Below are positions 3,173 to 19,917 of a DNA stretch of 20,000 nucleotides, piece after piece. Position 1 is the stretch's first letter. The number at the start of each line of letters is the position of its first letter. The stretch is taken from contig JAPEUG010000044.1 in the NCBI GenBank assembly GCA_026025795.1, positions 48,767 through 68,766 of the forward strand, given 5' to 3'. The stretch is from Thelocarpon superellum. Lineage: Eukaryota. The notes beneath the pieces are model-generated. The model did no database searches. It saw nothing but the letters and a program-made list of their open reading frames with translations, and had not been told where the DNA came from. The position numbers and the translations under genes are program-made.

Positions 3173-4021
3173 TCACAGCTTGCTCTTCCCGTGCCCTCCC
3201 GATGTCGATAGTTCGGCCCTCGCAATGCCAGAGACGACGACGGATAGCCCCTCGCCTGTCTCATCGGAAGTGATCTCGACCTCCTGGCAATCTTCCTGTG
3301 CAACGCCATTCACATGCTGCAAGACGACAAAATCAATGGGTTTGGAGCCCAGCACGATCATGGGCGAATGCCATGTTCCTGCCCGATACGTGACAGCCTG
3401 AGAGCCATCGGCCAGGAAGGCTCTCGCCTTGCCCACGTCAGGACGGCCTAGTAATGGTAGCGGGACGGGCTTGGGAGAGGACAGCGTCCGTGGTGACGCT
3501 GGCTCCGGGAAGGGGGGTGGCCGCGCGAGCGAGAGTACCTCTCGCAGCGACCGTCTTGGCCGCGGCGGCGGCGGAGGAAAGGGGGGAGGCCGCGGGTCCT
3601 CGGAGCGCGAGGCTGGCAGTGTCGGCGCAACGACCACGAGATATCGGGTGTGCGGGTCCGACGGGGCCAGGCCAAGTGGAAGAAAGGTCTGGCCGGTAAA
3701 GGGATGGCGTTCGAGCACGCTGATTGGGAGCAGACCCTCCACCAACCCGTCCCGGCTTTCAGATGGCGTGTTCGCATCCGGGGTCACGGGCCGAGGAGAG
3801 CACACAAACGTGTTGATGGTGAGACGGGCGGTTTTCCGGCTCGGTGCGCGGCCATAGAGGTTCTGCATCTTTGAGACATCTTCGTACTTCATGGCAGTGC
3901 CCTGGTTGGCCCCAACGGCGGGCGTGCCGGGTGATTCGCTGGACTGTGATGGGCTCGTGATGACGTCCCCGAATGCGGCAAAGCTCTGAGACGATAATAG
4001 ATCGACGGTGATGCGGGCCAT
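3173..4021 (-). CDS. DAL3: Ureidoglycolate lyase (allantoin/purine catabolism), single exon, 282 aa, C-terminal PTS1 (SKL)
   Basis: Family motifs F.AFGDVI, ANQGTA, LERHPFTGQTF.P, YLVVVAP, AFLADGSQAVTYRAGTWHSPM, DFVVLQH.NG. First in-frame ATG is at 4021 (the ORF-track start at 4099 is TTG). Ends GKSKL-stop. Confidence 0.92.
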   Translation of the reverse strand: MARITVDLLSSQSFAAFGDVITSPSQSSESPGTPAVGANQGTAMKYEDVSKMQNLYGRAPSRKTARLTINTFVCSPRPVTPDANTPSESRDGLVEGLLPISVLERHPFTGQTFLPLGLAPSDPHTRYLVVVAPTLPASRSEDPRPPPFPPPPPRPRRSLREVLSLARPPPFPEPASPRTLSSPKPVPLPLLGRPDVGKARAFLADGSQAVTYRAGTWHSPMIVLGSKPIDFVVLQHVNGVAQEDCQEVEITSDETGEGLSVVVSGIARAELSTSGGHGKSKL

Positions 4022-7000
4022 CGCAACGGGCACTTCAGCTGGGGGGCGATGACGTCTGGTCCCGTTCGAGGGCAGAAACGTTTCGGTCCGTCTCAACAAT
4101 AGTAATGCGAAGAGCGGGCGCTAGGATCCTGCCACGAGAGTGGTGCTGACCATCCTCTCTCATGCCACCTCCCCTTTGAAACACGAGGCGTCGAAGGGGT
4201 TGTTTGTCTGTGTCCTTGCTTTGCTCCGGATTAGTGACGACGTCAACGTGGGGAGAGAGGTCTGTTGACGCGGGGCCGCTAATTTCGTGGGATTGTGCCG
4301 GACGCGCACACCGGCTATTCTTGGAACATCTCGGTAGCCAAAGACCGCTAGCCGACTACGGCGTAGCGACTTGACCGCGCCTCCACCAAACCGATCTTTT
4401 TCGAGAGGGAAGGCCCTCTGGGCTCGGTGCCCGACCTGCTGCGCATTCGCCCGAAGAGGGCATCGCCCAGAACTTGGGCGGTCGGTGAACAAAGAGAAAG
4501 GATAATCGAGATCGGTCGACCGGCGATGATTCACACCGCAGCGCTCTTGGGGCCTTCACCGCCCGGACAGGCCGGCAGGCCCGGCGTCTGTGTCATCGCA
4601 CCGTGGCATTTTGCTACGAGCTCACCGTCATGCGCTCCGTCATATGCCGGCGATGCCACCGTGCCATTGGATCCAGATGGCCGCGTGCGCTCCGAAAACG
4701 CGGTCTGCGTTGGCCTGGGAGAGATTATCTCCTCATCCTTGGCGTCGTCCCAGTCGTCGCGGGGGTCGGTGTATCTTCCAAATTGCCATTATCGCGAGCG
4801 AGTCTGGATGTCGGCAGCGCCGAGAGGAGTCGGTCGCACGTTAGTCAGGAAAAATGGAGGGTCCTGTCAGCAGGCAGCGAAGCACGCCGCAGATTGCCGT
4901 GGTCATCTCCCGCCGCAATTCCCGAGCGACCAGGTGGGAACCGTGGTCGCGGACCGTTCATCCTGGCTCGCCCACTACTTAGTCATGTTCCCGGTAGCCC
5001 TACGGCCGAACCCTCCCGTCCCTAGGGACGTAACTGGGGTTGAGTTCTCGTCATCGCTCGCCGCTTGCGCGATTTGCTGGCCAATCTCCCGACCGGGGGG
5101 GTCGTAGTCTGATCACAGCCCCCCATTGGTCGTCGATGACGCTCTTGAATCTTCCTGAATGGGCCATCGTGATACTCTGCGCGGCCGTAGTGATGGGCGC
5201 GTACGCTGACGTGGCGCAAACGCAAACATGGCCCAGGACGGAAAGCACCGATGCACGCGGCGACACCGTGTCCGTGGTGGTGGTCGTCTTGTGGAAAGGT
5301 TACGTCGAGGAGTCACTGCAACGCTGCAGACGCCATGCAATGCTTTGCCTGGCGACTGATCTACCCGAGTGACTGGATCGGTCGCTTCTCCCGAGCCCGA
5401 CTTGGAATGTCGTCCCTGTCCCACCTCCGGCCGTTCGGCGCCCCCATGCGAAACATCATCACGTCGAGGGCAAGGAGGCATGACGTTGGACGAAGTAAGG
5501 TTTGGAATTAACTCGACTCCCGTCGGTGCCTGATGTCCCCATCCAGGCCGATCTACTTATAGATACGCAGCTGATTTGTGTATCAATGCGGGGCCGAGCG
5601 TCGCGACAGACCCGAGTGGGAGGGAAACCGTAACGGCCTCCAAATTTATGCCCCGCCGTCGCAGACCCCAACGGTGACGGTGGTCATGCACATGCAGACA
5701 CATACCAAGAGCCTGTGGAGCAACTGGGGATGGGGACGGGGTCGAAGGATGAAGATGCTTTCAGGGTTACGGGGTCATGAATGCCGCAACGGCCGTAGCA
5801 TGTGCCATGCAGCATATCTTTCGTGCAAGGTCACTACTCCCCCACGGCTTGTGATTTACCTCGCAGTTGCGTAGGGCTGGGGGGTCGGCACTTGATCCTC
5901 GTACAAAAATAGATCGCTCGACCAAGCCTACACGCTTGTGCACCGACCTCGGGGGCCCTCTGAGCCTCGGGGGCCCTGTGGGGGCCCTGCTGGAGTGCGT
6001 CGAAGGTTCGATGGAAAGAGGACGTGCATGTGGTGGAGGGAAAAGAAGAGGGGAGGCGGGCGCAGGCGCAGGCTCCGCCACAACCCGAGGTCGGTGGTTG
6101 TCGGGTGGGCGAGGTGGACGAGGTGAGTCCTCGTGGTCACGGGCGCTGGTGGTGGCCACGTCAGGTACCACGACCCTCCCGGCCTCTCCCCGGACCACCC
6201 GCTCGCGAACTGGGCACCGCAACAGCCGACCGTTCAGTCATCCGCACGCAGACCCTGGCCCCGCTGTTACCGTAATTAGCACATCGCATCGGATTACGGA
6301 CGTGTAGGCCGCCGCAGGGCATCTCCGCCCGCGGCCATCGATCCTCTTCCACAAGGCCAGGGCGCATCGTCGGGTCCGGGAGACAACTCCGATCCCCCCC
6401 TGGGTCCGAGGAAGCGACCGCAGCGAGAGCGTGCAGCAGTCGGCGTCACGGGGGGTCAACGGTTGACGCACCAGAGCCACCCTCTCCCTTCGGGACGTAA
6501 GCATCGATGCACAGCAGACGATTGGCTCGAGGGAAAAAGGATGAAAGGAAGGGCCAGCACGCTAGAGGGGGAAAATGTCTAATCGACGGGATCTGGCGTG
6601 TCCTGAGGGTTTGCCGACGGACCGTCTGGCCCAAAAGGCCGGCCAGGAGGATTGTGGGTGGTCAGGATGGTAAGGGTCGCTTCACCGACACCTCGCTCCG
6701 TCGCGCTGCACCTTCGGGGCTGCCGACACGCCCCAGAACCGGCGACGGCAGGCATGTCAGCAGCACCTGATTGGCCCGACCGCGCGCCAGGGTCCGGCCT
6801 GCCCTCCCCTACCCTGCGGTGAGCGACGCCGGCTCTCGGGCGTGAGCGGCCAATCCCTCCCACCGTCGCGGGTCGGCCAGCACTGGCCGCTCCCCGTGCT
6901 GGCCCAGGCTAGCGTGGCCCTGCTTCCTTGGTGCCTCGCATAGGGCCGAGCGACCGCATGGCAAGCATTGCCGGGGCCGTCCATGGTCCCCCATTCTAAC

Positions 7001-7458: not shown

Positions 7459-7533
7459 CGTGACCTGAGCGTGCCCCGAATTTTTCCGCGCCCGCCGACG
7501 CTCATGACGAGCCTCGCCGATCCCACCGTCACC

Positions 7534-10258
7534 ATGGCGGCCCATGAGAATCTCAACGATTTTGATCTCTTTCCCGAGCACGGCAGCTACCCAGCCTACT
7601 TCGCGCACGAGCACCCGCGACATGACGGCTTCAACCTCGACAGCGTCCGGCCTTTCTCCATGGCGCCGGAGCTCGCGCCGCCATACGGACAAGATGCCCT
7701 GAGCACGTATGACGGCTATGCCGCGCTGCCGGCCTACAGCCATGTGCCCGCGCATGGCTTCTACGATGCTTCCCATGGGCTGGCCGATAATCCTACTGGC
7801 GCCCTGAAGCACGCGGACCTGGCATCCGTGCCGCGTGCGTCACCCACGGCATCTGTGGAACACGCGCCCTCCTCGCTCTCGACAGCGTCGGGACCGTCGG
7901 TGGCGAGCGCGGCCTCGTCCGCCATCGGATCGCCTCATGCCAACGTCGGTCAGCTTTCCACCGCTGGGACATGGGCCGACGGAGTCGAAGCCTGGGTTGA
8001 CCCCAACCCGAGCGTCGTCGCGGTCGACGCTTCCACCCAGGACCACCAGACCCCAATTGGCCTGGACTCAGACCTGCTCTTCCTCAACGACAAACTCTCG
8101 GCTGGCTTTGTGGGTGAGTCCAACGAAGTTCCTCCGTCTCCAAGAGCTATTCGGCCTCTTTCTTTTTCCTCTCCGGCATGTCCATCTCCTTTTTCTTCGT
8201 CCGAGCCTGCTGCTTTTCCATCCGCCGCCGTCCCGGAACGGAGAGTGACCATCGACACCATCCTGGAAGAGGCCAACGGCGAAGTCACCAGTGCCACCGT
8301 GCCGGCAAATCCGGCGCCCGCAACGCCGCGGAAGCGGGCAACCACCTTGGCCACCAGCACCCCACCTCCCGACGTCTCCGTGTTCCGCTCGCCATCCACC
8401 CCTGCCTCGGCACGACGCGGCCCTTCACCACTCTCCTTCTCTCCCTCCGGCATACGAGACCGCAAACGATCGCTCCAAGGCACCAGCACCCATGGACCAG
8501 TCGCGAAGAGACCGTTCTTGCGCAACCCGTTTGCTCCTCACCCGCCTGCGGCAGAGCTCAGGGAGCGTGATTCTGCTGCTGCAGGTGCTCAAACACCTCT
8601 TCGTTTCGGTCCAAGCATTGGCAGTCTCGTGAAGCCAAATGACTCTTCTTGTTGGTTTCCTTCTCTGCGCGTGTCCCATGATTTTCTACCTCTCTCCTCC
8701 TGTCTCTTTCTGTCTCTTGCTCTCTCTCCTTTCTTCTCGCTCTCTCTCTCTTTTCTATGCTCTCCGTCGACGCTTTCCGGGAACAGAGCTGACGTATCGT
8801 CACTTAGATCCAGCGCTGATTCAATCTTTCCAACCCTACGTGGGCGCCCCCACTCCCAACGCAGCTCTGTTGAACGAGGCGGGCGCTTTCGCCGCTCCTC
8901 ACATGGCATTCGTGCAACCGCCGTCGCCGGCACCTTCGCATGGGTCAATGGGCAGTCGAAGAGCAGGCTCGATCAACTTCAAGCGAGGAAGCGAATCGCC
9001 CTACCTCCGCACGGCCGCGTTCCAGCCCTACCGTACCTACTCCGACCCGCGACGACCGTCGCTCTCATCCGTGCACTCTTCCTTTTCGAGCCACGGCAGC
9101 CCTCGGTCGACGAGCGGCGAGCTGGATGACGAGGGCAAGGAGAAGGGCCGCTGCCCGAATCCGGATTGTGGCAAGGTCTTCAAGGACCTCAAAGCCCACA
9201 TGCTGACGCATCAGTCGGAACGACCGGAGAAATGCCCGATCGTGACGTGCGAGTACCATCAGAAAGGCTTCGCGCGAAAGTACGATAAGAACCGACACAC
9301 CTTGACCCATTACAAGGGGACGATGGTCTGCGGCTTCTGCCCGGGATCCGGGTCGGCGGCGGAGAAGAGTTTCAACCGTGCCGACGTGTTCAAGCGGCAC
9401 CTGACGGCCGTGCACGGCGTCGAGCAAACTCCCCCGAACAGCCGCAAGAAGCTGTCCACTGGCGGCAGCTCCGGACCCGGCTTCGCCGGCTATGCCAAGG
9501 ACGCGACGGGCAAATGTTCGACGTGCTCGGGAACGTTCAGCAATGCCCAGGACTTTTACGAGCACTTGGACGACTGCGTGCTACGGGTCGTGCAACAGGA
9601 GGAGCCCAGCGAGGCCATCAACGAGATTCATCTGTCCTCGACGCTGGACGACGAGGCGACGAAGAAGACGCTGCGGGCGCACTCGTTGCCATCCAACTCG
9701 CTCTATCCGTCGCCACATCTTGCCCCCTCCTCGGACAACGAGCAAGACGGCTTGGTGCGGGCGGAGACGATGGAGCCCCGCTCCCGAACTGGATCCATCC
9801 AGGTCACCGGGGCGGGACAGCCTCCTCCGCATTGACAATCAGCACATCCCCGAGGTGTCCCTTCGCACGTCGGGGGTGGCAACTCCATCCACCACAAAGG
9901 CCGAGGCTTGACCTACTCCAAAGGCGGCGTACCGCTGGCGAGCAAGGGCCGGAAGAATCGCAAGGAGTTTCCGTTGTCGTGGGGCTGTGCGCCCGAGCAG
10001 ATGAAGATGCGCAAGCGGGTGCTGTGTGTCTTTGACGGGCCGCGCCGGCTCTGGAAGGATGACATGATGCTCAACAACGAGTTCGAGGTGCGCCTGCACC
10101 TGGGCGACGGCAAGTCGTACGTGACGGATCTCGACGTGCAGACGTTGAAACGGGCGCACGCCTTCCACAACGCGACGGAGGAGGAGAAGGGGCCGTGGAT
10201 CTTGGACTCGGAAGACGACGACCGGTCTTCCGTCGACCTGCAGGAGCTGATGTCATGA
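7534..10258 (+). CDS. C2H2 zinc-finger transcription factor; exons 7534-8113 (or extended to 8650) and 8808-10258, with an internal in-frame TGA at 9833-9835
   Basis: Tandem fingers CPNPDCGKVFKDLKAHMLTH, CPIVTCEYHQKGFARKYDKNRHTLTH, CGFC...FNRADVFKRHLTAVH, then CSTCSGTFSNAQDFYEHLDDC. Start ACCATGG at 7534 (in-frame ATG at 7504 also possible). Intron GTGAGT(8114)...GCTGAC...TTAG(8807) gives GFV-DPALIQ. 535 aa to the first TGA; the same frame stays open a further 140 codons to TGA 10256-10258. Confidence 0.88.
8114..8807 (+). other. Intron with alternative donors (694 nt from 8114, or 157 nt from 8651)
   Basis: Donors GTGAGT (8114) and GTTGGT (8651) are both phase 1; long CT-rich tract ~8685-8765; branch GCTGAC at 8788-8793; acceptor TAG 8805-8807. 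Confidence 0.8.
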
Positions 10259-10732
10259 TGTCATGTTGATCGATGCTAATGTTTCTCTCCGTCGATCTCG
10301 GTCCGCACTTGGCGTGTTTGATTTCCGAGCGCTGTGCTCTTCTCATCTCACCGCCTTCTCGTCCTCTCCCCTGAGGAATGAGGTTTTGGAGCGATTAGCG
10401 CATGATTCAGGATTGTGCATCATTCGGGGCAGCGTTGGGTTTGGGGCGAGGATATTCTCGACGATGACATGATGACGGACGGGGGGATACCAAGGGCACG
10501 TTTCAATCTGTTGACGGATGCATCGTACCATCTCGTATCATCTTGATTTCCTTCTCTGTGATTTAGCTACGCGAATGTGACACGGAACTGTGCAAATGTG
10601 TCGTGCGTCGGACCCCGTGAGAAATGATATGATGTCTCTATGCATGATCACAGAAATATAGAGAAGAGGATAGGTCACATAGAGCACAAGATTCTTCCCG
10701 TACGCCCATTCCCCCTCCCGGATGCCACCACG

Positions 10733-11557
10733 TCATAAATTAGCCACCTCACCGCGCCATCCCCAGCCGCCCGGCGGAGGGGAGGAAGACGAGCCGTCGG
10801 CCGTCCAGCACGTCATGCCCGAGGCCTCACAGATACGAATGACGACGTCACGCACCGCGCGGACCTCGGCCACACTCGCGCCCTGATTCAAGGCCCCTTT
10901 CAGATGGCCCTTCAGCTGGGAATTCACATCCTGCGGGATCAAGCCAGCGATCAAGACATAGCTTGTCTCGACTCCCGACAGCACACGCGTGTGGCTGAGG
11001 ATGTACCCGTACATCAAGCGCGCGGTGAGCCCCAGATCTTCCGTCCCGCTTCGCTCCATCCCGCCCATCACGCGCCCGGCCACCTTGCCGTAGACAAGGT
11101 CGAAGAAGCTCTGGCCCCGCTGGAGGATGGCGGAGGATGGCGTCGCGTAGATGTCGGTGGAGCGGGAAGTGGAGGTGGAGCCGTCGCCGGACGGAAGATC
11201 GAGCAGAGCCGCGGGCGTGCCGGCCTTCAGAGCCATCAGCGCATTGATGGCGCGCGGGAGGCCGGCGATCGGGGCCATTTTGATCAGGGCTTCGCGCATC
11301 TTGCGCGCGATGCGGACTGGATCTTCGTGGGTAGGCGGGGGGATGCGCGAGGCCGATGTGGAACCAGATGTGCATGCGGGCGTGGCGCAGTGGTCGAGCG
11401 CGTGGGTGAGGACCTTGGGGATTTCATCGGCGCGGTTCAGGACCGATAATGCGACGCCGGCGATGAAATACCATGTGTGTTTAGGGAGGTGGGGGTGCTT
11501 GCTGATCGAGCGGAGCAACGTCGGCGTCATGACGCTGGGAAGCGTGATGGCGGCCAT
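10733..11557 (-). CDS. AhpD/carboxymuconolactone decarboxylase-like protein, resembling yeast Pxp2/YJR111C family; single exon, 274 aa
   Basis: Motifs REALIKMAPIAGLPRAINAL, RGQSFFDLVYG, ETSYVLIAGLIPQDVNSQLKGHLKGALNQGAS.AEV. ATG in GCCATGG context at 11557 (ORF-track start 11617 is GTG). Ends EVANL. Confidence 0.8.
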   Translation of the reverse strand: MAAITLPSVMTPTLLRSISKHPHLPKHTWYFIAGVALSVLNRADEIPKVLTHALDHCATPACTSGSTSASRIPPPTHEDPVRIARKMREALIKMAPIAGLPRAINALMALKAGTPAALLDLPSGDGSTSTSRSTDIYATPSSAILQRGQSFFDLVYGKVAGRVMGGMERSGTEDLGLTARLMYGYILSHTRVLSGVETSYVLIAGLIPQDVNSQLKGHLKGALNQGASVAEVRAVRDVVIRICEASGMTCWTADGSSSSPPPGGWGWRGEVANL

Positions 11558-11823
11558 GGCAACGAGCGGTGGCCAGCTCGGCGAGGATCTTGCGGATGGT
11601 CGCTTGTGGCCATTCACTCGTACCTCTACATCTTGTGCGTCCTGGCTGCTCCAGGTATCTGGCGGCGAGGTGCACTTGAAATTCGTGCTTGCCCGCGGTG
11701 ACGCTGGATTCGCATCGCGAGTCGCCTCGGTTAGATTGTATTCGTAGTCACGTCGACGCGGATTCCCTCGCCTTGTGGCTCCCTGAAAAGAGACTACCAG
11801 GATTGAAGGTGACTTTAGACCAT

Positions 11824-13049
11824 TTACAACTTCTCGTCGGATTTCTTGGCTTCCATGGCCACATCCTCGTGATAGCCAACGGCCCGGAGGATCTCCAGCA
11901 GTCTACCGCCGTCTTGCTGGAGCAAGTCCCACTCCTCTTGCCTCTTTACCATCAACGACCCTGCGAGCATGGTGCCGTTGAGATTGATCGGGCCAACCAT
12001 GCGAGTCTCCTGTCCCTCGCCAAACTCGCGCACGTCAAGGAAGGCCCCCCCCTGCCTTCGTGGGCATAGAACCATGGTCGACGTGGTCAATGCCAAGTTG
12101 TAGCTCTTCGGCAAGTTGTGCCGCCGCGGGTCGTAGCTCTTGTTCTGGGTGCTCTCATCGCCTAGCAATCCAGCCCGCTTGCACAGCGACAGATACGTCC
12201 CATGAAGCGCCTCTGGTTCTATATCGGGCGCCAGGGCTGCTCGATAGTAGAGAAAAGGAGTGTATCCTACCCATCGAGGTTAGTCACTTCTTGTATCCCG
12301 ATCACGAGCTGAGACTTGTGAGACGATCGCTCTATGAGATCTCGACGCCTCCTGATGCTCACGGACGCTGTGGACGAGGCCCTACCCGAATCGTAGGTCA
12401 AGGTGTCACATAGGAGCGACCAGCCTTGGCTGCCCTCTGGCCCCTTCATACCTTCCACGGGCAGGAACTGAACGTGGCGGTGGCTCTGGCTAGCTCCACT
12501 ATGCTCGCCGCCGTTGAAAAACGCAAAGAGCCTCTCCTCTCTCCTATCGCCGCCGGACCCATGTCTCCAGGCTCGCAGGCACGACAGAGTGAGGGCCAAG
12601 TCATCTGCTTCCAAGAGCTGATTCTGTTCCTTGAAAGACGTCGTGACCAGCAGAAAGTGATTGGGGATGATGGGATATTTATTCAGGACAAGACGATGGG
12701 ATGGTCGGCTTCCTGGAACATTGGCGATCAAGAGATCGCCTGGGGGATGGAGGAAAGGATTCGGTTTCTTGGAGCCAGACGGCGGGGAAGCGGCCGGCTT
12801 CTCCGGCTTCTCCGGCTTCTTGGCCAGGTTAGGGCAATACCGAAGCTGAAACTACCATGACGACGGACGTCAGCATGGCTGACGACCCAGCGGTTTACGT
12901 TAGGGGTCTAATCGCACCGCGACATTCCCGAGGCGGATCACGGCCAGTTCGGTGGGCGTAAAGGAGAGCTCTCCCCTTGCTTTCGCATTGATATATTTGT
13001 CTTTGACCAAGGAGTCAAGCTGACCGGGAAGGCCAAGACAGCTTTCCAT
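11824..13049 (-). CDS. APA2: Ap4A phosphorylase / ATP adenylyltransferase (Apa1/Apa2 family), three exons: 13049-12918, 12851-12386, 12266-11824
   Basis: Spliced product MESCLGLPGQLDSLVKDKY...LAVIRLGNVA|FQLRYCPNLAKKP...NPF...HRLVLNKYPIIPNHFLLVT..F.EQ...FAFFNGGEHSGASQSHRHVQF (HxHxQ catalytic motif)...SYNLALT...LCPRR...NGTMLAGSLMVK. Intron 1 12917-12852 (GTGCGA..GCTGAC..TAG); intron 2 12385-12267 (GTAGGG..ACTAAC..TAG, phase 1). APA1 versus APA2 cannot be distinguished. Confidence 0.9.
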
Positions 13050-16590: not shown

Positions 16591-17805
16591 CCACGGTGGC
16601 TCTTCCTGCATTCAGCCCACACAGAGTCTGTGCTTGCTTTCGCACGATACGGAGTTGGCGAATACTTCCCTTACCTCAGGAGGCTGCGATTTACAGTTCT
16701 TCACACGGGAAGCCTGTGTCGTGGCTGGTGTCAGGCGATCTGTTTTCCTCTTCCGCATGGCATCTCGTGTTTTGTTGCGTCTTACCCCGCCGCTTGATAG
16801 AGTCCACTAGGGACCATATAATCAGCGGAGTTAATCTGGAATCTACCAGCACTGAGCCCTCGCCCTCGATCGTATTACAGGGATCAAGGCCAGGGGGTTT
16901 CATGAGCACGTTGGATGCTGGAGATTTAGGGTCCAATGAACAGTCAGGAGCAGATTGAACGGAAGACTGGTAGTGCTTGTCCTTGTTTTTGACGCCTGGC
17001 TCGAGTTCCAACGGTCGAGTTTTTTCGCTTCAGCGATGTAGTGCACAGCACACCATCTGGTCAACAGGTGCATCTTGGAAATGTCCCGGTGGATGATGGT
17101 ATCATACACGCCGTAGATGTGACGGTTGGAAAGGGTGGGACGTGCGCAGTGACTCCTTGATGGGCTGATGCGTTAAGGTTTCATCAGTCTCATCAGTGAC
17201 GTTGCACGGTCACTCGTTTCCAGACCAGTACGCGTAGATACGGCGATGACCGTAAGTCCTCTGCGTGGCCGCTGGTATCCAACAGTTGAGAAGGGCAGAG
17301 GCGGCAGGCGTCGTGGGGCCTGGTCACATCCTCTCGCATGCTCTGCACCCCACGCAGCGCGATCGATGCTACTGGCGACCCGTAATAAGGTTACCATCAC
17401 GCCGTTTACTCGGGGCTACCGAGCCGGAACTTGGGGAGCTCGGGCCATTACTAATGCCGCTGGCCGCCCCCGGCACATCACGGCGCTAAGATATCACCGG
17501 GAGACTAGGAGTAAGTATACATGTACGAGTACAGCATGTTCGCTGCAAAGGGCTACTCGAAGCGCGGCATGCTCGCGTTGACATGCCCAAAGACATCCCA
17601 CCCCCAGCTGCAGTGGCAGACAAGGATCAGATGGAGGAGAGCTTCAGCTCGCCCGCGGCTCACCGGGAGGCCGATGAAGCATCCCATCGATAATCGTAAT
17701 CCAAGATGCATGCCCTCTCGTGAGTGATCGGCGCAGCAACCAATCGCAGCGAGCCCTCGACGCGACCGTTATCCATGCCATGGACTCGCCCGACACGACG
17801 TCCCA

Positions 17806-19917
17806 ATGATCTCGGGCTACCTTTCCAAGGCGGCCGAAGGACATGGTAGGTCGCGTCCGTGCCATCGGCGCATGTCGACTGACTCTGCGCAAGCTGAGGA
17901 GGAATTGGCGTCGCCGAACACCGTATCGAACATTCCGCAGGACGAATCGATCCATCGCGGGGCCCCTCACAACACTCTTCCCTCGAATCGCTCTCTTATC
18001 AATGCCGAGCCGATAGATCGATCCGTTCCAGCCAACATGGCGAGCCAAACGCTGCGCGCAGACAATGTGGTGTCGTTGGACCGAGGGCGAATCCTCCGGG
18101 ATGATAGTCCTCCGGTCAGCAAGATCCCTCCCGCGCACGCCGTGGCAGGCTCGGAAGGAAGGGAAGTCGGCTTCCCGCCCGATCCCGCCACTTTACCTCC
18201 TTCGACGGCCGGGCAGCGATTGAAGCGAACGGGCCGACGCTCCCAGGCTCTCCGCTCCGAGTTTCAAGCGCAGGCATCCGGTGCAGGGAGCAGCAAGAAG
18301 CGTAAGCGCGACTCGGCCACGCATTCCCCATCGCCGGATCCCAACGATGCATCAGCCTACTCGCATCCAGCAGAGGAGGCTTCGTCGTCGCCAAACAGAG
18401 GGGGGAAGAGCAAGGAAGTTCTCCGACCGGTGGCGAGAGAAAGAGGGCACGACGATGAACTTGACGACCCGCCGCACCCATCGACCTTTACCAGCCCACC
18501 GCATGAAGCTTTACTGAACATCAACAAGTCCGACATACGATCGATCGGCGTCCACTCGGCGGTGGCGCTCTTCCGTCGACCGTCCGAGTCGAGCATGAAA
18601 TATGCTCGTCCTCCCATGTCGAAGCTCTTCGCGTCGCTGGAGCTCTCGCCGGAGAACTTCTTGCATCTCCAAGCCGCGGCAAAGACATATATGCTAAATG
18701 ACGATTATCCGGAGCGACGAGAGTGCGTGGGCAATCGCGGGAAGGGGGATTCGGATATGGTCAAGCTGCGACTGTACAACTGCGCCAATGAGTTCTTGGA
18801 GGGCGAAGGAAACGGCGAGAGGTACTTTGGCAGAGACGTGGCCCAAGAAGGCGTAGCTAGGAGACGCTTGATCTGGCCAGAGCAGAAGCAGAGGTAAGAG
18901 GGCATTTGGAGATGTCTCGATAACAGGCTGACGTTGACTAGTATCCTGGCTGCCGTCACACCGCTCCTGCGCCGGATGGTCACGAATGAACGCCAGCGAC
19001 GGTATGCGGTCGAGACGCGAGCCAAGGCCGGCGGACCCGAGAGCAAGAAGCGCAAGGCCGACGATGCAGGACTGAATGAATCCGAGCCGGAGATGGAAGT
19101 GGATCAACGGAGGTCAGAGCCAAGGGAGAGGGTCAGGCCAATCCCATCCATCGACCCACATCTTCGACCGGCAACAGCCAACGCACCCGCTACGCTTCCT
19201 CGTCCAATCGAGCTGCCTCCACCCACTGAATTCGCTCCTTCCATCGAGCTCCCGTCTCCGATCGAGCTCCCTCCAATCAAGCTTCTACCTCCAGCCCGCC
19301 ACTCCTTCTCAAGCGAGCTTCCTCCTCCAATGGACTCTCAAGCTCGCGCCGATCTCGTCCTTTCATCGCCGTCACACCCGTCGAAGAGACCCAAGCTCGC
19401 GCCGGTCGAAATCGCGGACACGCGCCCCTTACCTCCACCTCCGCCGCCACCTCCCACCATCCAACTCCCCGTATCGCCGGAAATGGTCGATCACGCACTA
19501 CCGCCACACGCCCACGCCCATGCGCCACCTCCGCGCAACTTCTCCGGCATGACCATCCACTTGAACATCCTCAGCGGATCGTCACGTCGCCATCCCCGCA
19601 CCTCCCTCGACGCATCTCTCTGCCCCACCCTCGCCTCTCTCGAACACTACCTCCTCCTCCAGCGCCACCATGCAGACCCACCACCCACCCCTCCTCTGCC
19701 TCCCCTCCCTCCTCACTCTTCATCTGCATCGACCCCGACATCCGCGTCTCGCACCACGGAAGCAGCAGACGACATGACGTCCATGCGATCGATCCAAGTC
19801 TTGACCGAGCACGGTCTCGTGCCCGTGCACGACGACACCGGCTGGCTTGATGTCCTCGCCAAGATCCACGCTTGCGTCTGGATGGATGATCAAGTTCGAG
19901 TCGTCGCTCGGTTCTGA
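17806..19917 (+). CDS. Conserved fungal hypothetical protein, probably nuclear; exons 17806-18893 and 18942-19917 (possible additional in-frame 48-nt intron 17846-17893)
   Basis: The two long ORFs are joined by intron 18894-18941 (GTAAGA..GCTGAC..TAG, 48 nt). Ordered core GVHSAVALFRRPS...KYARPPMSKLFASLELSPENFLHLQAAAK.YML...PERRECVGNRGKGDSDMVKLRL...PLLRRMVTNERQRRYA; basic clusters SKKRKR, SKKRK, SKRPK; Pro-rich linker; small C-terminal domain. True start uncertain. Confidence 0.82.
18894..18941 (+). other. Spliceosomal intron (48 nt)
   Basis: AG|GTAAGA...GCTGAC...CTAG|T, phase 2; removes the TAA at 18895-18897. Confidence 0.88.

Follow-up and report, generated by a model that had tools for sequence, protein, structure and literature searches.

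The window analysed here is a stretch of 20,000 nucleotides (nt) of Thelocarpon superellum DNA (assembly GCA_026025795.1, contig JAPEUG010000044.1, positions 48,767 to 68,766 of the forward strand; coordinates below are those of the window). It carries a gene for a zinc-finger transcription factor whose reading frame is interrupted, downstream of the fingers, by a TGA: the zinc-finger open reading frame (ORF), which extends from stop to stop over 8633..9835, ends at TGA 9833-9835, and the same frame is open again from 9836 to 10255. An earlier note on this DNA, made from the letters alone, had described the TGA, the CAA TCA next to it and the 140 open codons that follow, all of which are confirmed in the sequence, and had proposed programmed readthrough of the stop as a gate on the C-terminal domain. 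That proposal is now supported by a conserved stop with a CARYYA context in 52 of 80 related loci, by purifying selection downstream, and by the presence of the stop in spliced transcripts of relatives. Programmed translational readthrough of UGA, directed by a CAA-YYA hexamer and a 3′ stem-loop that are conserved across two deep clades, is very probably what yields a short and a long isoform from this gene.

Thelocarpon is placed by NCBI taxonomy in Pezizomycotina, leotiomyceta incertae sedis. The best database match of the gene is P0004, a hypothetical protein of 612 amino acids from a T. superellum metagenome-assembled genome, with 100% identity where covered. The gene (Table 1) contains a single intron, with alternative donors at 8114 and 8651 and a common acceptor at 8807. 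Translation from ATG 7504 gives a start (MTSLAD...) like that of the homologues (M[AT]SLAD...), the public model beginning instead with MAAHEN at 7534, ten codons downstream in frame. From ATG 7504, the stopped and read-through proteins would measure 545 and 686 amino acids in the N-short form, and 724 and 865 in the N-long form; the lengths of 535 and 676 given in the earlier note hold for the annotated ATG 7534 with the long first intron, but not for the start shared with homologues. Both N-terminal splice forms are paralleled in spliced contigs of relatives (L011 and L015 vs. L009 and L023, corresponding to introns 2457-2998 and 2889-2998 of genomic L008), and the N-terminal block skipped by splicing (TIDTILEE..., SPxTPASAR) is conserved in some homologues and missing from the public models of others.

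The four fingers are spaced C-X4-C-X9-H-X3-H, C-X4-C-X15-H-X3-H, C-X2-C-X19-H-X4-H and C-X2-C-X12-H-X3-C; their region matches PF00096 at E 2e-4, under Pfam's own cut-off, and is separated from TGA 9833 by a variable acidic or low-complexity linker. An NsdC-type factor (Aspergillus NsdC, Trichoderma Nsd3), considered as a candidate identity, was set aside on its described finger spacing: that type has two C-X2-C-X12-H-X3-H fingers and one C2HC finger (PMC13599534), and only the C2HC unit fits.

Table 1. Features of the zinc-finger gene and of its internal stop codon in the window.
Feature	Position	Strand	Basis or remark
Whole gene, C2H2/C2HC zinc-finger transcription factor with a putatively leaky internal stop	7504..10258	+	ATG 7504 matches homologue N-termini
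First intron, long form (GTGAGT...TAG, 694 nt)	8114..8807	+	Gives N-short isoform, junction GFV/DPALIQ
First intron, short form (GTTGGT...TAG, 157 nt)	8651..8807	+	Gives N-long isoform with 179 extra codons, junction SS-Y-PALIQ as in homologues
Zinc-finger region, four Cys/His units, the last C-X2-C-X12-H-X3-C	9152..9586	+	Most conserved part of the family; PF00096
In-frame stop TGA, putatively leaky	9833..9835	+	Sequence, reads, related loci
CAA TCA hexamer, CAR-YYA context (tobacco mosaic virus type)	9836..9841	+	CAA and final A invariant, middle two bases always pyrimidines
15-bp stem-loop, arms 9842-9858 and 9865-9880	9842..9880	+	Encodes peptide block AHPRGVPSHVGGG
Predicted readthrough extension, 140 codons; terminal stop TGA 10256-10258	9836..10255	+	
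Basic patch KGRKNRK (GRKKRK in relatives)	9944..9964	+	
Conserved C-terminal domain (PLSWG...RRLWKDD...YVTDLD...EEKGPW)	9971..10198	+	Relatives labelled PF28332 in protein database

Conservation of the stop codon, its 3′ signals and the tail

Of 330 related loci in the DNA of metagenome contigs, the 80 most similar to the query were used, a set that contains many near-copies. The first stop after the fingers lies at the homologous position in 52 of these 80 and reads TGA CAA YYA; in 25 the frame stays open to the normal terminus, and three are cut by contig ends. The earlier note had supposed that homologues carry the C-terminal block in one continuous ORF, which is true only of those 25 loci, which resemble Leotiomycetes and Eurotiomycetes; many public proteins seem continuous only through gene models that splice around the stop. 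Both flanking motifs are present in 67 loci; the zinc-finger and tail frames are identical in every one, with exactly one stop in 48 and none in 19. Locus L070 ends 27 nt past the stop.

The stop is TGA in the window and in 52/52 stop-bearing loci, never UAG or UAA. Among 38 unique stop-bearing sequences, the codon after it is CAA in all 38, and the next is TCA (16), TTA (16), CTA (5) or CCA (1). Because the amino acid at this second codon varies (Ser, Leu, Pro) while YYA is constant, it is the nucleotide pattern C-A-A-Y-Y-A that is kept, and not the residue. In the same genes, Gln is encoded by CAA in 41% of cases, Ser by TCA in 11.6%, and Leu by TTA in 2.9% and by CTA in 7%, so that the hexamer is conserved as nucleotides beyond what the protein needs: the second codons account for 3-12% of their families, yet are always YYA. 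The codon preceding the stop is variable (CAT, AGT, GCG, TGT and others). Of 35 unique stop-bearing genes, 25 end at the conserved C-terminus with TGA, in varied contexts, eight with TAA and two with TAG; as TGA terminates most of these genes, it is not reassigned.

The hexamer singled out in the earlier note is only part of the signal, since a conserved 15-bp stem-loop, which the note had missed, lies directly 3′ of it. In an alignment of the window with 18 loci (19 sequences), RNAalifold predicts a stem of 15 pairs that begins 7 nt past the stop with its outer pairs and 10 nt past it with the main helix. Four pairs are compensatory (AU 7/GC 6; CG 13/UA 3; GC 13/AU 4; GC 10/AU 4/GU 4), and 95.4% of alignment cells are paired, a share that falls to 39-52% if the 3′ partners are displaced by 1-3 columns. 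Covariation scores 0.207, compared with 0.144 in shuffles, and this value was reached by 0/500 in a control that takes no account of relatedness. In the window itself, the predicted fold has an energy of -27 kcal/mol (z -3.79), matched by 0/200 shuffles. Loci with a 6-nt insertion keep the stem and add an inner hairpin.

A covariance model built from the 19 sequences matches 49 of the 52 stop-bearing loci, once each and precisely at the stop, the 19 training rows matching by construction; E is ≤1e-10 in 43 loci and the window, including ten insertion-group loci outside the training set. None of the 25 stop-free loci was matched, and the model had no match anywhere else in 399 kb. The arms of the stem encode HPRGV and HVGGG, and the HPRGV..HVGGG block is absent from every stop-free locus, which suggests that it is kept for the RNA.

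The tail that the stop separates from the fingers (P0001, 140 residues) matches 1080 longer fungal proteins at E ≤1e-3, the best at 3.6e-63; among the matches listed (120), all carry PF28332 at the C-terminus, with the same zinc fingers ahead of it. When 13 proteins are aligned, the sequence is conserved again from two codons past the stop, in the blocks SAHPRGV.SHVGGG, RGLTxSKGGV, GRKKRK, PLSWG, RRLWKDDMML, YVTDLD and EEKGPW. The KGRKNRK patch resembles a nuclear localisation signal (NLS) and may act as one. The tail is under purifying selection: among 17 pairs of stop-bearing sequences, 13 have a ratio of nonsynonymous to synonymous divergence (dN/dS) of 0.00-0.18 beyond the stem-loop, and synonymous divergence (dS) is saturated in the other four. 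These values are similar to those of the linker and somewhat above those of the zinc fingers (0.02-0.05). A search of orthologues, which the earlier note had proposed, has therefore found both a conserved stop with CARYYA and low dN/dS downstream, and the stop is not private to this genome. In the 16 codons following the stop, dS is ≤0.32 in 15 of 17 pairs, vs. about 0.3 to >2 (mostly 0.6 to >2) in neighbouring regions; by this comparison of few codons, the post-stop stretch is a synonymous-constraint element.

Structural searches with the tail were uninformative. An AlphaFold2 prediction from 36 sequences had a mean predicted local distance difference test (pLDDT) of 50.2 and a predicted template modelling (pTM) score of 0.32, which did not warrant a fold search; profile searching of PDB sequences had no match with E below 0.84, ESM Atlas matches scored ≤0.81, at chance level, and a scan of Pfam models, PF28332 not among them, gave no family.

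The named proteins nearest to stop-bearing loci come from Paraphaeosphaeria (Dothideomycetes) and from lichen-forming Lecanoromycetes such as Pleopsidium, Wetmoreana, Alectoria and Flavoplaca. On a tree of 64 unique proteins, computed with linker and post-stop columns removed and with root and direction unsettled, the stop occurs in both deep clades and requires five changes of state, at least three of them forced by well-supported branches, a distribution that fits an old origin followed by several losses. The readthrough signal decays where the stop is lost: locus L027 has CTC CAG TCT in place of TGA CAA TCA, and L035 and L045 share a 27-nt deletion that takes both the stop and the 5′ arm.

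The stop codon in reads, gene models and transcripts

The genomic reads at 9833-9835, a check suggested in the earlier note, agree with the assembly. A Logan contig from run X1 (737 nt, depth 173, covering 9697-10400) shows 0 differences from the window and no variant at ≥10%; since the window may itself derive from X1, the contig excludes an error of consensus without being an independent confirmation. Runs X2 and X3, from another study, each contribute a low-depth 151-nt piece over 9796-9946 with one differing letter, the identical coordinates meaning that the two may be one datum. Since differences at least 21 bases from piece ends are listed and this letter is not, its probable place is within ~20 nt of a piece end, away from the stop. 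X1 also contains a second contig (2364 nt, depth 11.6) that matches the window only at 9832-9879, the 48 nt comprising stop, hexamer and stem-loop, with five differences and dissimilar flanks; the sample probably contained a second fungus that bears this element.

An intron removing the TGA was sought by checking by hand all GT..AG pairs around the stop, and was rejected because each pair shifts the frame or loses conserved residues. GT occurs in 9700-9832 only at 9709, 9755 and 9803. Joined to AG 9841-9842, donors 9755 and 9803 give introns of 88 and 40 nt, both shifting the frame, exactly as the earlier note had calculated; the next acceptor, AG 9853-9854, requires a donor phase absent from all three GTs. 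The first in-frame option around the stop is 9755..9946 (192 nt), which removes a conserved block. This is the interval that the public model P0004 treats as an intron, thereby losing part of the block conserved in relatives.

At least 14 database proteins skip the stop region, with a different junction each time (P0004, P0007, P0008, P0010, P0011, P0012, P0018, P0019, P0024, P0028, P0031, P0046, P0067 and P0117). The introns in these models, which belong to named lichen-forming and Dothideomycete fungi, look like predictor artefacts and take out conserved residues. Other database proteins have a residue at the position of the stop: Gly in P0025, Ser in P0009 and Trp in P0006, where the Trp may reflect a gene caller reading TGA as W.

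Among the related loci, the cDNA-like contigs L009, L011, L015 and L023 align to genomic L008 and L012 with clean, GT..AG-bounded gaps of 107 and 110 or 542 nt, and cDNA-like L059, apart from gaps of 111 and 295 nt, is 99.8-100% identical to L056 and L058. By these gaps, we take all five to be spliced transcripts; they are consensus sequences, with the life stage unspecified. An in-frame TGA CAA TTA or CTA is retained in 5/5, so the stop survives splicing, and no editing shows in the consensus RNA. For the window itself, run X6 (guessed to be RNA) has 151-nt pieces at 9266-9342 and 10064-10214 only, none of them over the stop.

Probable readthrough and competing explanations

The readthrough that we favour would proceed from a mature mRNA that keeps its UGA. 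With UGA in the ribosomal A site, CAA UCA and the stem-loop would weaken termination, and a near-cognate tRNA would decode the codon in a fraction of ribosomes, the expected residue being Trp, Cys or Arg. Termination would leave a short form (545 or 724 amino acids) with zinc fingers and no tail; the long form (686 or 865 amino acids) would add the NLS-like patch and a conserved domain of ~75 residues.

Several observations weigh against this reading or narrow its base. The loci were picked by similarity and include many near-copies, so their counts are not independent, and 52 of 80 is no frequency among fungi. The covariation control ignores relatedness, and the low post-stop dS rests on 16 codons only. 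Seven stop-bearing loci (L022, L026, L039, L044, L052, L061, L064) keep TGA CAA YYA and lack the main stem-loop, having weaker hairpins with z from -2.3 to +0.6; the structure is therefore not universal. In locus L031 (1347-1900), a +1 frame shift occurs ~30 codons past the stop, 3′ of the stem-loop, and the domain continues in the next frame; this could be a sequencing error or a decaying copy. The transcript evidence comes from relatives and not from Thelocarpon, and no RNA runs with the window's own sequence over 9300-10300 are listed. What the comparison shows is a conserved stop, hexamer and stem-loop, a stop that persists in the spliced RNA of relatives, and purifying selection on the tail; passage of ribosomes through the stop, its rate, the residue inserted and the roles of the isoforms are inferred.

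In six of the seven loci lacking the main stem, the sequence after the hexamer is replaced by ACC GGT GG..., with a weaker hairpin from ten bases after the stop, and in L064 it begins ATC GGG G. This subgroup may represent a second solution to the same problem.

The explanations that compete with readthrough differ in what they ask of the stop. The earlier note had offered A-to-I editing of UGA to UGG as another route to the long form; such editing of the mRNA might be confined to sexual tissue. Stop-loss editing does occur, and frequently, in some filamentous ascomycetes (PMC13123824), P0006 reads W in place of the stop (maybe the gene-caller effect already mentioned), and metatranscript contigs, as consensus sequences, are silent on sexual stages. 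Editing as described there, however, is biased to UAG with the edited A in a hairpin loop, whereas TGA stands in 52/52 loci and the window, and the candidate A follows a G and lies 6 nt 5′ of the stem rather than in a loop. With TGA read in 5/5 spliced cDNA-like contigs and an invariant CAA YYA, a known translational signal, left unexplained, editing is not favoured and seems to us very unlikely. Independent translation of the tail, begun internally or by reinitiation at invariant Met residues (KMKMKKRV) while the zinc-finger protein always ends at TGA, would suit the two invariant Mets found 56 and 58 codons past the stop. Yet stop-free relatives, whose protein is a single chain, have these Mets invariant too, and the 55 codons between stop and Mets are conserved as protein (RGLTxSKGGV, GRKKRK, PxSWG), which a separate ORF would not need; these codons are in the frame of the upstream ORF in 48/48 testable stop-bearing loci and the window. 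Internal initiation also leaves the hexamer and stem-loop unexplained, and we consider it very unlikely.

That an unrecognised or non-canonical intron removes the stop, as public models assume, is highly improbable. TTGAC...CAG at 9832-9842 does resemble a branch site and acceptor, and an intron is placed here in the models of at least 14 proteins, but their junctions all differ, no GT..AG pair can remove the TGA in frame without loss of conserved residues, frame and protein conservation reach the stop from both sides in all loci, and five spliced transcripts that lack their true introns retain it. Next to nothing speaks for a private nonsense allele, a pseudogene or an assembly error: a single in-frame stop in one genome would look like a nonsense allele, and nothing else is left in its favour, given a contig of depth 173 with no variant, the stop in 52 related loci of two deep clades, and downstream dN/dS of 0.00-0.18, which refute a private allele or error. 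The constant use of UGA, never UAG or UAA, would also be expected if the codon specified selenocysteine or had been reassigned in these fungi. Dikarya are not known to have the selenocysteine machinery. A scan of 9600-10900 found neither a selenocysteine insertion sequence (SECIS) nor any other Rfam family at E up to 1, the residue at this position in stop-free relatives is Leu, Gly or Ser and not Cys, and TGA terminates 25/35 of the same genes; we give this explanation almost no credence.

If readthrough of the UGA is indeed what takes place, it might serve as an ancient switch, common to Dothideomycete-like and lichen-forming lineages, that links the activity of a DNA-binding regulator to termination efficiency, a suggestion that we put forward tentatively and consider less likely than not to be right in full. 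An abundant short form would then bind DNA with neither NLS-like patch nor C-terminal domain, as a competitor or a cytoplasmic pool, and the rare long form would be the active factor. The ratio of the two might respond to release-factor availability, stress or development, and HPRGV..HVGGG would, as a corollary, be kept as RNA stem arms and not for a role in the protein.

Relation to known recoding systems and surroundings of the gene

The CARYYA motif promotes readthrough at UGA and UAG alike, and 3′ structures usually start ~8 nt past the stop (PMC3542737); a similar motif works in yeast, where all six bases matter (PMC4132726). Like the type I signal of tobacco mosaic virus (UAG CAA UUA), the present site has CAA YYA directly after the stop and a C-terminally extended product expected from some ribosomes (PMC3542737). 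The tobacco mosaic virus signal is viral, uses UAG and is described as needing only the local hexamer, whereas here the gene is a cellular fungal one, the stop is always UGA, and an extended stem-loop follows. Type II viral readthrough (alphavirus, tobravirus, coltivirus) shares the UGA and an extended stem-loop ~8 nt downstream (PMC3542737), but CGG or CUA follows its UGA; as CAA always follows here, the context is not that of type II. With CAA YYA and an extended stem-loop, the site combines a type I sequence with a type II-like structure, and a similar mixture, UAG-CAA-UUA with a compact stem-loop, is described in benyvirus (PMC3542737, Table 5).

The Arabidopsis eRF1-1 stop, likewise in a cellular gene, has the same nine nucleotides as window 9833-9841; its context, TGACAATCA, showed moderate readthrough when measured, and the hexamer is extremely conserved among plants (PMC5397192). 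Readthrough of the plant gene enters the 3′ untranslated region and tunes nonsense-mediated decay, whereas here it would add a conserved 140-residue segment; a stem-loop, such as follows the stop here, is not described in the passages of that paper on the site. Drifter, a Drosophila POU/Oct factor, is reported to be another transcription factor given a C-terminal extension by conserved readthrough, in an animal (PMC8417969). In stop-loss A-to-I editing of filamentous ascomycetes (e.g., FgDBF2), a gene likewise gains a C-terminal extension, but the stop is a UAG in a hairpin loop edited only in the sexual stage, in contrast to a UGA outside the stem with a readthrough hexamer (PMC13123824). The programmed frameshift of PaYIP3, also in filamentous ascomycetes, is likewise a conserved recoding that makes two proteins per gene, but by a shift of frame, with no folded transcription-factor domain gated (PMC3777964).

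We found no published account of readthrough for this factor, nor any from Lecanoromycetes or Dothideomycetes, in a search that did not extend to subscription journals and supplements. Well-supported programmed readthrough in cellular fungal genes is, to our knowledge, rare. In filamentous ascomycetes, peroxisomal isoforms, two proteins from one gene, arise by conserved readthrough that adds a short targeting signal at a UGA CUA-type context, with no folded transcription-factor domain gated. The locus described here shows the whole set of comparative marks: the stop and hexamer are conserved, the stem-loop covaries, synonymous change is suppressed, the downstream domain is under selection, and the signal disappears wherever the stop does. 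If the readthrough is real, one gene would provide two regulators in a ratio set at translation termination, and a conserved transcription-factor domain would be gated in two clades. Public models that hide the stop behind invented introns would need correction, and gene predictors for these fungi a readthrough rule. The 48-nt element is compact and easily tested in reporters, and could serve as a natural fungal readthrough cassette.

A stop codon elsewhere in the window, a TAA between two long ORFs of one frame (17728-18897 and 18898-19917), was considered as a second readthrough site and rejected because it lies inside an ordinary 48-nt intron (18894-18941, GTAAGA...CTGAC...TAG), which makes it a contrast case. 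Three neighbouring ORFs, all on the reverse strand, match a ureidoglycolate lyase (3176-4120; E 1e-43), the carboxymuconolactone decarboxylase family (10736-11902; a weak match at E 1e-4, below Pfam's cut-off) and the N-terminal domain of Ap4A phosphorylase (12270-12851; E 9e-25); by these matches, they appear to be ordinary housekeeping genes.

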